From: Hormiphora californensis
Taxonomy: Eukaryota; Animalia; Ctenophora
DNA: 64,000 nt
Reading direction: 5' to 3'
Assembly (NCBI GenBank): GCA_020137815.1
Contig: CM035362.1
Span: 3,782,001-3,846,000 of the forward strand
A program made the translations under genes and the position numbers. Below the pieces are notes generated by a model. It was not told the origin of the DNA. It saw only the letters and a program-made list of their open reading frames with translations, and did no database searches. Below, piece after piece: positions 45,949-54,900 of this stretch (positions within the stretch are counted from its first letter, which is position 1; each line of letters begins with the position of its first letter).

Positions 45949-48900
45949 TTAGTCATCCCACCAAGAAGTGGCATTGGAACCTGAAAAAAGGGGAAACGGT
46001 CAGAAATAGAGTTGGAAAACTATCTAGGGGGGGGGGGGGGGGCAAGGCCAAAAAAGCTAGATCGATCCTCAATTTAGGGCGGGTTTGGCTTTTTGGGTAA
46101 AAAAAGCAAAAATCATTTGTTCTGATTGATATTGACTGGTTGTATCAAAAATAGAACAACTGCCGGTGGAATTATAAGAGGGTCTTGGACATTGCCTAGC
46201 TAGACCCTGTTTCGCGAGCCTCTTTACAAATGTAAAGGGAGGGTTAGAACATAACAACCTACCTCCACCGGAGCGAGGGTTGTTATTGTAACTGTTATTG
46301 GAGTGATTGTTAGAGTGACCACCACCACCACCACCACCACCGCTGCTGTGATTGTTAGATCGTCCCCAGTTTCGGTCATCGTTTCCACCTCGGTCATTTC
46401 CACCACGGTCATTTCCACCACGGTTGTTTCCATATCGGTAGTCACGGCCTCCGAAGCTTTGGTTGAATGGCCTATGGGGCGGGGAGAAGGGTTATGTTCG
46501 CAAAAGGCAAGCTTCCCCTCGTCCGACCCGAAGTTGGAATCATATGGGTTTAGTTTGTCGAACCGGCAAGTTGCTAACATTTTCAAATCTTCACTACTTC
46601 TCAAATGATCCCATACTTTCAGTCTAATCCCAAAATCCTATTAAAAATAGAGACAAAAATAACGGCACCAAACTGTGAAATGCCCTTGCATTAGTGCGAG
46701 TAGAATAAAATCAATTTTCTATCTAAAGGCCGAGTTTATAGCAAGAAAGGACTATTTTACAACGAATTCTCTGGTTAGTATGGTAACCAACTCCGTTGTC
46801 ATGGTAAATCAATCGAACTCTATCGAGTTCTATCGCCAGCAACTGGATGAAAATTTATCCATTTCATTATGCACAATGCACAGGCTTTGGTTACGAAGTT
46901 ACCCCTTGCCAGCGTGTGCACGCGAAGGACGCCCGGCGACAGAGTGTGAGGTGTCTTCGATACCAAGCACAGGCTTGTGTAACAAAAAGGGGGGTTTTTA
47001 TAGCTTATTGTTCATCATAACCTGAAATAAATAATTTTCATTACTTTCACAAAGGCTCAAAGTTTGAATATCAAATTTGCCAAAATTGTGCAGGGGCCAC
47101 CCCAAAATTAATCTCTAAGTAATTAATTAATTAATTTTGACTATTCCCACTTTCTGTAGATTATATTATATGTTTTATGCATGAAGAACATTCCTAGAAA
47201 GTTTCAAGTCGATATTTTAAGCAGAACGGAAAATATAATTTAGTGCATGGGCAAACAAAATGGTGCAAGGGCACATGTTCAGGGGAAATTTGCACAAATT
47301 GTGCAAGGGCAAATTTTGATTAATTTGCCTATAATTAATTACCTAATTGATATATTAATCATACGGCTCTTCTAGTACTCGTAGTTATGCTACTAGAACA
47401 TGCATAGAAAGTTTCGTGTCAAAATATTAAACGGTGTGGACACAGTTCGATCATAAAATTGGTGCAAGGGCTGCCCTTGCACCATTTGCCCTTGCACATT
47501 GCCTGCCCTTGCACCAAATTCCATTTTTTGCACGGCTCTAACTAACTAATTAATTAATTTTGACTATTCCCACTTTTCGAACATCATCTTTTATGATTGA
47601 AGAACATTCCTACAAAGTTTCAAGTCGATATTTTAAGCAGAACGGAAAATAGAATTTGGTGCAAGGGCGCGGTGCAAGGGACAGAACACGCAATGTGCAA
47701 GGGCACGGTGCCCTTGCACCATTTTTAATTACCTATAATTAATTAATTAATTAAAAATTCAAAAATCCGCCAACGTCATGACACAAAGGAATACTACAAG
47801 AACATGCCTACAAAATTTCAAGTCGATATCTCAAACGGTGTGGCCACAATCGTTGACATGTTTTTTGCCCCCCCCCCCCCCCCCCCCCCCAAAAAAAGGA
47901 CCTTTCTTTGTTCTTAATAGGGCCGGCATTTTTGGGTTTTTGTGCAAGGGCAAAAAATTTTTTTTCTTTTTTTCTTTTTTTCGTTTCAAACTTTTCAACA
48001 CTACTTTAAGGGTACGCTAACCAAAAATTTTTTTCGAGTGCAGGGAAATCTCTCACCGTAGGGTTGTAGGCCATGCCAAGGAGACCTCAAATATGCAATT
48101 TGAGCTCTCAAGTCGAATTCATATTTTTGCTACAGCTGCTTGAAAAATGAACTGTAAATACGTTTTTGGCATCTCAAAAAAATTTTTTTAAAGATAGGAG
48201 CATGAAAATTTGGGGATTTGAAGAGGACATGAAAGTGAATAACCACAAAATTTTTTTTTGCAATCCGAGCTGATTTCCGGTCCTGAGATGGATTTCTTTT
48301 TTTCCACTTTAACGCCCTATTTGGCAAAGTTCCGAAAACATGTGAAAGCTGTAAATTGGTGAAAAGTTGCGTCTAACGATTATCTAAGTGGCCATAAATT
48401 TTGGGCGTGTCCTTATTTGAGATAAGCTGTACAGAGTTTCTTTTGTGAAAGCCGTCATTTCAGAAATAAATAAATTCCCTGTATCTCAAAAACGGCTGAT
48501 CGTAGAGACCTGAGACTATGCTTAAACGATTCAGAAGGTCCGATTTTGGGGGGGTCTTCTGAGAGACATTTTGCTCCTACTTCAACCGTTTTTGCTGTAA
48601 TTGCGAAAAACAAAAACCCATCTTCGCCATCGTGGATTTTTTGTGATTTTGTTTTTGGTGATTATAGGGACCCATATGGACCAAATAGTGAAGGAATTAG
48701 CTTGTTACACATTTTTCCATAGTTTCGGTCCTTTCTTAGCTAAAATTCCCTAATTACAGGATATTGGAGTTTAGCTTTTGCCCTTTTCATAGAATTTGTT
48801 TTTCGCAATTACAGCAAAAACGGTTGAAGTAGGAGCAAAATGTCTCTCAGAAGACCCCCCCAAAATCGGACCTTCTGAATCGTTTAAGCATAGTCTCAGG

Positions 48901-51900: not shown

Positions 51901-54900
51901 AGTTTGGGCGTGTTGACAAGGAAGCGAGGACGAAATACGTCAAGGAAGACTTGGAGGAGTCCAGAGATGACCCTAAAGCCCTTCAAAGGAAACTGAACCG
52001 TCTACTTGGTAATACTGAGACCTTTATGCCTGAAACCACAGATAAGCAGAGGTTAGCGGATGACTTTGCGGACTTCTTTGTTGGAAAAGTTGATAGGATC
52101 CGGTCTACTGTTATTGGAGAGAAGAATCTGAGGACTAAGAGGAACCCTATTCATCAGACACCCGTCTGTTGTTTTGAGGAATTTGAGGAAGTTTCCCCAG
52201 AGAAACTAAAGAGGATAATCAAAGACATGCCAGACAAGACATGTGATCTTGACCCTATACCGACTTGGTTAGTGAAGGGGTGTATGCATGAGCTAGCTCC
52301 AGTCTTGTGCAGGTTTATTAACCTATCTCTTGGATGTTCCAGTGTTCCTGAACTTCTCCAGCAAGCTTTGGTGTTTCCCACGATTAAGAACCCTTATGGC
52401 GATAAGGACACTTTGACCCATTATCGGCCAGTCTCCAACCTATCTTTTTGTCTCCAAACTTCTTGAAAAGATAGTTCTAGAGCAGCTCAACTCGTATCTC
52501 AATGAGAAACGAGTTACTAAATAAGCATCAATCAGGTTACAGGGTGAATCATAGCTGTGAAACCCTACTGATGGGTATGTTTGATGATCTCCTTCGGGAT
52601 ATGGATGAAGGAAAGGTCGCAGGCCTCTTTCTATTAGATATGAGCGCCGCTTTTGACACAGTGGACCATGGAAAGCTGCTAGAAGTTCTTGAAGGACGGT
52701 TTGGAGTGAGGGGTTCTGTCTTGGATTGGTTCGCCAACTATCTACAAATGAGGACTTATCGGGTAAACGTGGAAGGGGAACTTTCGAGGATTGTCTCTCT
52801 GATTTGTGGAGTTCCGCAGGGTTCACTGCTTGGACCTGTGTTGTTTTTACTGTATGTGGAGGAATTGCAAGATTTGGTCAAACCTTATGGCTTGAGGATT
52901 AAACTTTATGCTGATGACTCGCAATTGTACATCAGCTTTGTACAACTGATGAGGAAAACTGGAAACTGGCAAAGGAGAGGACTGAGGAATGCTTGTCAAG
53001 TGTGAAGAGTGGATGAGTGAGCACTGGCTAAAGTGCAAATGAGGCAAAGACTGAATTCCTGCTGTTAGGCAAAAACAGTGCCCTGGATAAGATGGTGTAT
53101 CAGCCCACTGTGGACTTTGGTGGAGTGGAGATAAGCCCAGTGGACTTTACGGGTAATGCAGGAAAAAACACTAGGAGTGTTCCTTGATAGCAACCCTCTC
53201 AATGGAGAGACAAATCAACAGTGTTAAGAAACAATGTGGTTTGCTTTTGAAGAATCTATGGCAAGTAAACCGATGTCTGGATAAATCGACCAAGATACTC
53301 CTTGTTAAGCAGCTCATCATTTCAAGATTGGATTATTGTAATGTCCTTTACCATGGCTTACCTAAGAAGCTTCTCAACAGCCTTCAGAGAGTCTTGAACT
53401 CGTGTGTCAGATTTGTTTATGGCCTATACGGTCACCAAGACACCTACATGCCATACTTGAAAGAGTTGCATGTTCTTCCTGTGGAACAACGAGTTACGTT
53501 CAAAGCATGCCTCATGGCGTACAAGATTGTACATGGATTGGCCCCTAACTACCTGCAAGATCAGGTCCCTGTTGATGATGGACTTCATGTGATCCGGGCT
53601 ACTAGAGGAAATGCTTGGCCTGATGGCCTCAAGCTGAAGTACCCTAAGCTATCAAGTGTCAATGCGACTTCCAAGTTGAGAAGAAGACGTCCGTCGGTTT
53701 ACCTGCCTGAAGTCTGGAATGGGCTTCCCCTTGATCTGAGAGCTGTTGAGTCTGTGGAATCTTTCAAGTCTAAGCTCAAGACTAGTCTTTTCACTGAGGC
53801 TTTTGGTGAGACTGGACTGTCCTCTTAACACTCTCCTTCTTGCTGAGGTATGTGCTCTGGCTGGTACCCGTTTTTAATTGTTTTTCTGTATTATAGCTCG
53901 TGGCGAGCAGAAGTGTGAAGCATATATTGGGGTTTTTCATAGCACGAGTGTTTTTCTGTGTTTCTAATCTACGGACTTTTACATCAATTTTTAGAGTTCC
54001 AGGACTCTAACTCAGTCTGTTATGTATTCAGTCACCGATAGTTATGTGAGCCGATAGTAATGTGAGCCGGTGTATTTTTTCTTTATTATTTTTTGTTCTA
54101 TTAGGGATAAGTTTGCGAGGTCTTACCAGTATATTAACCGTTCAGATCATCCTTCAGTGACAGTAGCAGTTCCCCTGCTCTGTCCCTGTCGGATATGGGC
54201 GGAATATAAACATAGTTATTATTATTATTATTATTATTATTTTTTGCTGTTTTCTTCGGGTCGGAGGTGCCTGCCGGCACCTAAATATAGGGAGTGAGGG
54301 AGAGAGAGAGAGAGAGAGAGAGAGAGAGAGAGTGAGAGAGATTGAGCGAGAGAGATTGAGCGAGAGCGAGAGAGAGAGAGAGAGAGAGAGAGAGAGAGAG
54401 AGAGAGAGAGAGAGAGAGAGAGAGAGAGAGAGAGAGAAGAGAAGAGATCCCCGGTCCATCAATCCCCCAACATACTTCCTGTGTGTTCTACGATTGGAAT
54501 GCTCCCTTGCAACTCCCTCCATCCAAGTAGGGATCTCTTGGTCACACTCAGTTAGAATTGGAAGCAGGTCCCGGGCAATGTTCATGTTCTTCTCATTGAA
54601 GAAGGAGGTAGCGAGACCAAGGTTTCCCACTCGACCTGGGAGTGGGTGGTTAAACGTCTGAGGAGAGAAAGATAGAAGTAGATTGATGGATTAAAAAAAA
54701 ACAATATACTAAAAGTATCAAAGTTCCTTACCAGTTCGTCCAATTCGGTGAACATATTCATCAATATCAGAGGGCATATCGTAGTTGATGACGTGTTTCA
54801 CATTGGGAATATCAAGTCCTCGGGCAGCAACCGCTGTGGCTACAAGAATGGGGTTGTTTCCCGTTTTAAAGGCATGTAGGGCTGCCTCTCGTTCCCTCTG

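Follow-up and report, generated by a model that had tools for sequence, protein, structure and literature searches.

A ctenophore spliced leader fused to the 5' end of LINE and LINE-like sequences, and its possible renewal by host trans-splicing

In the window (the whole stretch of 64,000 nucleotides of Hormiphora californensis DNA that was analysed) a LINE retrotransposon lies antisense within a long intron of a DDX3/PL10 DEAD-box helicase gene, and the host exons are collinear on both sides of it (Table 1). The preliminary description of this locus had recognised a near full-length LINE, which was borne out by the 5' UTR, the open ORF1, an ORF2 encoding APE endonuclease and reverse transcriptase, a predicted 3' stem-loop (about 54154-54190, with similar hairpins predicted in the related elements L004 and L002) and a simple-repeat tail, (TTA)8, at 54216-54239, i.e. 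the parts of an autonomous APE-type LINE. ORF1 gave no Pfam match, and ORF2 is open in L002 and L004 and is broken in the window by several one-base frameshifts (about 52445 to 53165). This copy is thus dead, being frameshifted and antisense within the DDX3 intron. The LINE itself showed no target-site duplication. Its flanks matched nothing informative in the rest of the window, which also contained no further remnant of this or the related LINE families, nor of the insertion described below.

Table 1. Features of the LINE locus and its surroundings (positions within the window)
Feature	Position	Strand	Remarks
Host intron (GT...AG), DDX3/PL10 DEAD-box helicase gene	46472..54475	-	8004 nt; LINE antisense inside
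SL exon, 5' part (nt 3-29 of published 44-mer)	47983..48009	+	27 nt; terminal TTAA is the target of the DNA-transposon insertion
Non-coding inverted-repeat DNA element	48010..49399	.	1390 nt; 605-nt TIRs, GG...CC termini, TTAA duplication
Duplicated TTAA and final 15 nt of SL exon	49400..49418	+	closes with the sole AG of the leader
LINE 5' UTR	49419..49605	+	187 nt, no upstream ATG; from alignment to L004 UTR
ORF1	49606..50895	+	429 aa, open, ATG at 49606; three Cys/His zinc knuckles near C terminus (type I-like)
ORF2, APE endonuclease and reverse transcriptase	50784..53828	+	Pfam PF03372, PF14529, PF00078
3' UTR with predicted terminal stem-loop and (TTA)8 tail	53829..54239	+	from sequence and folding prediction

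Assignment of the LINE to L2 is plausible. An ORF1 with three Cys/His knuckles is the kind found in L2 (type I), though Jockey and CR1 have it too, and 96 of 122 relatives possess a C-terminal motif that we take to be typical of L2. Among 120 matches there was no named L2/CR1 reference, and the Atlas names were generic RT or jockey-like only. The architecture resembles that of Jockey-superfamily L2/CR1 LINEs (two ORFs, an APE and RT containing ORF2, a type I-like ORF1, three knuckles and a simple-repeat tail). According to the available text of PMC4120745 those LINEs begin element-specifically, whereas here the 5' end is a host spliced leader (SL) exon.

The 27 nt at 47983-48009 and the 15 nt at 49404-49418 together match nucleotides 3-44 of the 44-nt leader of H. 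californensis printed in PMC8527503 at 42 of 42 positions; at the composition of the window a specified 42-mer would be met at a specified position with a probability of about 1e-24, and the leader is present once in the window. It had been proposed beforehand that excision of 48010-49399 and one TTAA rebuilds 42 nt fused to the LINE 5' UTR, that the junction lies at the terminal AG and is followed by GATCC with no GT donor, and that the 42-mer is the ctenophore SL. Each of these points held: the 42-mer also starts three mRNA-like contigs and is found in a real SL-RNA gene (L007; fold z -3.9), where a GTAAG donor follows it, and the window has neither a GT donor nor a structured SL intron at this place. 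The match between L007 and the window is confined to the leader, and the 120 nt past the joint do not resemble the intron of the SL-RNA gene (shuffle p 0.67).

The leader of the window copy is split by an inverted-repeat element that carries the signature of a Kolobok-type transposon, as judged from its termini, and that would have inserted later than the LINE. Kolobok elements combine a TTAA duplication with 5'-RR...YY-3' termini, the latter distinguishing them from piggyBac (PMC9587614), and the insertion has GG...CC with TTAA. Its 605-nt TIRs differ by two mismatches and its longest stop-free frame is 82 aa. The summed depth of its contigs in public runs is very high, although contig depths are not copy numbers.

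We also found the leader at other loci, by scanning marine metagenome samples with its 27-nt 5' part as an exact query, so that a perfect 5' part was needed for detection. The scan yielded eight loci, namely one SL-RNA gene array, three mRNA-like contigs and four LINE or LINE-like 5' ends, and in all eight the 15 leader nucleotides outside the query were identical; scans of viral_contigs and genome_contigs gave no matches. L002 and L004 are full-length, intact relatives with open ORF1 and ORF2 that start at the leader; their contigs (from DNA or RNA libraries) contain 6 nt before the leader and 17-170 nt beyond the TTA tail. L006 has an ORF1 and an APE-containing ORF2 behind the leader, its endonuclease being weakly similar to that of L004 (E 0.003). 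L005 has an ORF1-like ORF, without significant BLASTP match to the ORF1 of L004, and no RT within its 1258 nt; its Atlas match of 0.86 to ctenophore clusters is a lead only. Contigs of four out of 22 listed public runs were compared with the window, leaving out both LINE flanks as repeats. One contig of 158 nt covers 49400-49555 with 11 differences and hence represents a further copy that shares the joint, and two contigs of another run have the unsplit leader ahead of 49400. None of the public-run contigs listed spans the whole stretch, and the joint was not covered in the single candidate RNA run compared.

Counting the window copy and these four loci, five LINE or LINE-like sequences thus open with the leader, each joined directly at its exon end with no SL intron in between. 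All five have the structure of a retrocopy, i.e. a leader ending at the donor site, no intron and a foreign upstream flank. Immediately ahead of the 42-mer the SL gene, the published leader and all three mRNA-like contigs have an A, which four of the five LINE heads lack (the window has C there). The preliminary description had named SL-intron sequence at the junctions of other copies as an argument against its reading; the 120 nt downstream of the joint showed no similarity to the SL-RNA intron in any of the five heads (shuffle p 0.21-0.91). Descent of the LINE UTR from the SL intron, for which an 8-nt word common to L004 and L007 was considered, was rejected by shuffles (p 0.21).

These observations strongly suggest that, as had been proposed, LINE RNA was SL trans-spliced and then reverse-transcribed almost to the cap: the identity of the SL, the joint at the end of the exon and the same head on other LINE families all support it. 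The host spliceosome would join the leader to the LINE RNA at a fixed site, and reverse transcription would proceed to about one base short of the cap. Site-specific insertion in an SL-RNA gene would also place a leader immediately 5' of a LINE. NeSL, SLACS, CRE and CZAR are non-LTR elements of the RLE type that insert into SL genes, and they likewise tie a non-LTR element to a spliced leader. The present element has an APE endonuclease and sits in an intron unrelated to SL genes; neither of its flanks resembles an SL-gene unit. Such an insertion, or an assembly artefact, is largely refuted: the host exons are collinear across the insertion, and an mRNA-derived artefact would not contain a leader interrupted by a young transposon that has duplicated its TTAA target exactly.

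The leader could also have come to lie there by a template switch of the reverse transcriptase onto SL RNA or an SL-capped mRNA, or by ligation of a free SL exon to LINE RNA. Comparable products are known in mammals, where U6/LINE-1 and mRNA/LINE-1 chimeras likewise arise by fusion of a host RNA to the 5' side of a LINE, either ahead of reverse transcription or in the course of it (bioRxiv 10.1101/2025.02.02.635956). As far as the available part of that preprint goes, these are sporadic and the LINE is typically 5'-truncated, whereas here the elements are full-length, the joint is fixed and the leader precedes the first ORF in five of five cases. Moreover, all five leaders end at the last base of the exon, and the joint is common to two families that are saturated with changes, which makes this origin highly improbable.

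The divergence of the families contrasts with the constancy of the leader. Identical four-fold sites numbered 29/81 (ORF1) and 32/91 (ORF2) between the window and L004, and 15/58 and 48/166 between L004 and L002, so that synonymous sites between families are near saturation (26-36% identity); the leader is nonetheless identical. The window ORF1 is 61% identical to that of L004 and 47% to that of L002. In the closest pair (window and L004) the UTRs, of 187 and 188 nt, begin at the identical base after the leader and are 74% identical (131/176 aligned columns). The preliminary description had left two outcomes, loss of the outron in each daughter or an SL captured permanently by the family; both are weighed here, together with a third that had been omitted, in which the leader is renewed in each cycle. 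In that case the leader would be taken repeatedly from host SL RNA and not passed on as a constant segment of the element, and this would be why it is identical despite saturation of the elements and shows no erosion of its length. Permanent capture, in which each family once took the leader, transcribes it from an internal promoter and keeps its identity by selection (as a translation enhancer), agrees with the conserved UTR, would not require a weak GAG acceptor and accords with the internal promoters that LINEs have as a rule (available text of PMC2861651). We nevertheless consider it unlikely, since it demands perfect conservation across five families whose sequences are saturated or cannot be aligned. 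At the level of UTR conservation the probability that the 15 unselected bases stay identical in L004 alone is about 0.01 (0.744^15), and the host genomic leaders are described only as more than 90% identical.

We propose that SL-headed copies remain competent and exchange the relic for a fresh leader, to which we give a little less than even odds. This is slightly favoured over a version that shares the trans-splicing step and in which masters keep outron and promoter, trans-spliced RNAs produce mostly dead-end SL-headed daughters and rarer unspliced RNAs continue the lineage, a possibility that we regard as somewhat doubtful but serious. A fixed acceptor in the masters would explain the same-base joint and the perfect identity of the leader with no need for a GAG acceptor, and only about 30% of the TE Iso-Seq reads of Hydra carry SL (available text of PMC12220107). 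The acceptors themselves speak against renewal, as the relic ends in GAG whereas the host acceptors are YAG in eight of eight readable cases. In L005 and L006 a YAG is retained six bases downstream of the leader; it should outcompete the relic acceptor, and its presence fits use of the upstream one of two tandem acceptors in masters. On the other hand, L002 and L004, both assembled at full length and with open ORFs, start at the leader, and although an acceptor whose use cuts off the promoter ought to be lost readily, its position outlived synonymous saturation. The retained UTR also appears constrained (74% versus 35%), as if functional, and no outron-bearing copy was found among 21 listed of 1153 loose ends, which is a weak test. 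The probability is roughly 0.4 that several unrelated ctenophore LINE families run a self-renewing cycle, in which the relic has a single AG, transcripts entering it are re-trans-spliced there and the host spliceosome thereby restores the exact capped 5' end of the element in each generation.

The idea that a case in an animal LINE was undescribed is weakened by published precedents. Calvelo et al. 2025 (PMC12582326) proposed a trans-spliced origin, in one sentence, for 597 loci of parasitic flatworms with partial leaders beside LTR/LINE repeats. These too are animal genomes with a leader adjoining such repeats, but the leaders are partial, lie up to 500 bp from the repeats and were discarded as noise, and the available text describes neither joints nor the anatomy of families nor a life cycle. 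In Hydra (PMC12220107) and Heterodera (PMC6362198) TE transcripts are SL trans-spliced, so that the necessary RNA step occurs in animals; in their available text these reports concern RNA only, without leader-headed genomic copies. The SL-relic retrogenes of dinoflagellates (PMC5585692 and PMC12014239, as far as available) likewise have a trans-spliced leader in DNA 5' of reverse-transcribed RNA, but there the retrotranscribed RNA is a host mRNA and the leader survives as remnants, whereas in the present case several families of autonomous LINEs in an animal bear an exact and nearly complete leader. No SL-headed LINE was found in the available text of PMC7986045, PMC9911081, PMC2861651 and PMC4558846. 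Within the literature available to the search, we found neither a ctenophore report nor a base-exact case in several families of an animal.

The LINE heads offer an origin for hundreds of genomic leader copies in Hormiphora, whose genome paper counted 718 copies and left them unexplained; self-renewal, if true, would account for many of these. Counts of ctenophore SL genes, and first exons shared between annotated genes, may include LINE heads, and the leader is a simple marker of full-length LINE 5' ends. The proposed life cycle can be tested at the level of single bases with existing genomes and Iso-Seq data. Every LINE copy must have its 5' end rebuilt. If ctenophore LINEs leave this to host trans-splicing, they have a life cycle of a distinct kind, and the 5'-end problem of LINEs would have, in an animal, another solution beside internal promoters and ribozymes.

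The preliminary description had placed a split leader 5' of the LINE and taken it for the ctenophore spliced leader (SL), and both claims were borne out: a TTAA, the 1390-nt element, a second TTAA and the 15 final bases were recovered, and the two leader parts, taken together up to 49418, match nucleotides 3-44 of the H. californensis leader published in PMC8527503 at every one of the 42 positions. The interrupting element has two mismatches between its terminal inverted repeats (TIRs), ends in GG...CC and contains no long reading frame; its TIRs, TTAA flanks and termini match the Kolobok signature, which PMC9587614 sets apart from piggyBac by the termini. 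With its near-perfect TIRs it appears to be a young, non-autonomous Kolobok-type element, and in public runs its summed contig depth was far above that of the LINE.

Features located in the window
Feature	Position	Remarks
Leader, 5' part	47983-48009	ends in TTAA
Inverted-repeat DNA element	48010-49399	1390 nt; 605-nt TIRs; TTAA either side
Second TTAA and 15 final leader bases	49400-49418	
DDX3/PL10 helicase gene intron	46472-54475	8004 nt; LINE lies within, antisense
Degenerate repeat, period ~200 nt	47100-47960	recurring palindromic motif; adjoins leader on upstream side
DDX3 exon start and acceptor, apparently duplicated in tandem	56397-56482	minus strand
Dispersed ~110-nt repeat copies	1549, 2513, 13384, 14373, 14637, 15912, 16676, 21492, 22288, 27126, 36775, 38517, 39228, 44034, 44915	
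Tandem arrays	59449-60698 and 35981-36407	periods near 46 and 58 nt

Behind the leader follow a 187-nt UTR without ATG, ORF1 (429 aa, with three Cys/His knuckles), ORF2 (encoding APE and RT, its frame interrupted at several points by single-base shifts) and, at the 3' end, a predicted hairpin and (TTA)8; this copy is dead. The DDX3/PL10 exons are collinear on both sides of the LINE-bearing intron, and one matches, at 100% identity, an entry in EukProt whose identifier is of Pleurobrachia style. Among the matches listed, 30 of 120 database proteins share 61-93% identity with L004, a leader-bearing metagenome LINE related to that of the window, the nearest of them being 92% identical to the window ORF2; the window LINE belongs to a broad family, putatively of the L2 or CR1 group. 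The dispersed ~110-nt repeat is MITE-like (at least 15 copies, 90-100% identity, terminal inverted repeats of about 15 nt).

A scan of metagenome contigs for exact matches to the first 27 nt of the leader, which picks up leader-bearing copies only, gave nine matches at eight loci, and the 15 leader bases outside the query were identical in all eight. One locus (L007) is a true SL-RNA gene: a GT donor follows the leader, the intron is structured, and the SL RNA folds with z -3.9. Together with 5S rRNA it forms a tandem unit of 778 nt; in the units at 694 and 1472 the two genes alternate on a shared strand. Three loci look like trans-spliced mRNAs, with an ATG 1-3 nt past the leader (L001, cathepsin; L003, proteasome subunit; L008, no Pfam hit). 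The remaining four belong to LINEs or LINE-like elements. L002 and L004, both full-length relatives, have TTA tails and keep both ORFs open, L006 combines an ORF1 of another type with an APE ORF2 and represents a separate lineage under the identical leader, and L005 has an ORF1-like frame only, its LINE-like identity being weakly suggested by a sequence motif and a tentative Atlas match. The Cys-rich fingers of the L006 ORF1 differ from those of the window ORF1.

Five LINE or LINE-like sequences carry the exact SL exon at the 5' end, the joint falling directly behind the exon's last base. We estimate at roughly 0.8 the probability that these copies arose from a trans-spliced RNA template. The LINE RNA would be trans-spliced at a fixed site and then undergo target-primed reverse transcription, usually stopping one base short, plausibly at a modified cap-adjacent A. 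In the SL gene, all three mRNA-like contigs and the published leader, an A precedes the 42-mer; among the LINE heads only L004 has this A, and the other four have C, T, T and C. Fusion by template switching should give variable LINE-side joints. The alignment of the window and L004 UTRs (74% identity) begins with the base immediately behind the leader, and no alignment was found between the UTRs of the other heads and these two. Insertion of a LINE into an SL gene should leave SL-gene flanks, and none were seen. Resemblance to the SL intron was absent in all five heads. Permanent capture of the leader by LINE families would require perfect conservation five times. Four-fold sites between these families are near saturation (identity for ORF1 and ORF2, respectively: 29/81 and 32/91 for window versus L004, 15/58 and 48/166 for L004 versus L002), and we argue that the leader was drawn repeatedly from host SL RNA, because its identity and constant length persist across saturated families. 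Four of 22 public runs were examined, from an organism that contains as much as 73% of the words sampled from the LINE; one contig covers 49400-49555 with 11 differences, and two have an unsplit leader upstream of 49400. The one candidate RNA run examined had no reads across the joint.

A self-renewing cycle of leader-headed LINEs is possible, if somewhat doubtful. That re-splicing at the relic continues the lineage, which we hold only tentatively, is favoured by the 42-mer having a single, terminal AG (loss of the leader's first A removes the sole other one), by a pyrimidine tract flanking the window relic, by constraint on the retained UTR and by the assembly of intact relatives, which starts at the leader. 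Against it, the relic ends in GAG, whereas all eight readable host acceptors are YAG, and a YAG six bases downstream is retained in L005 and L006. This strong pyrimidine-AG, acceptor-like hexamer right behind the leader (L005, 96-101; also L006) is unexplained under simple renewal. Outron-bearing masters with dead-end daughters fit the same data, although no such copy was seen by a weak test.

In dinoflagellate SL-tagged retrogenes (PMC5585692, PMC12014239), a leader is likewise copied into DNA on a retrocopy, whereas the cargo here is the autonomous element itself. In animals, some 30% of long reads from Hydra TEs bear an SL (PMC12220107), SL transcripts overlapped a CR1 repeat in Heterodera (PMC6362198), and a flatworm study set aside 597 loci where partial leaders lie close to LTR/LINE repeats, proposing that they were copied from trans-spliced RNA (PMC12582326). 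In the Hormiphora genome 718 leader copies were counted, in a passage that leaves the attached sequence unstated (PMC8527503). The literature searched, with most subscription papers outside its reach, contained neither a ctenophore SL-headed LINE nor a base-exact SL-headed description for an animal LINE family. The leader-LINE fusion in a ctenophore is a real feature that spans several LINE families.
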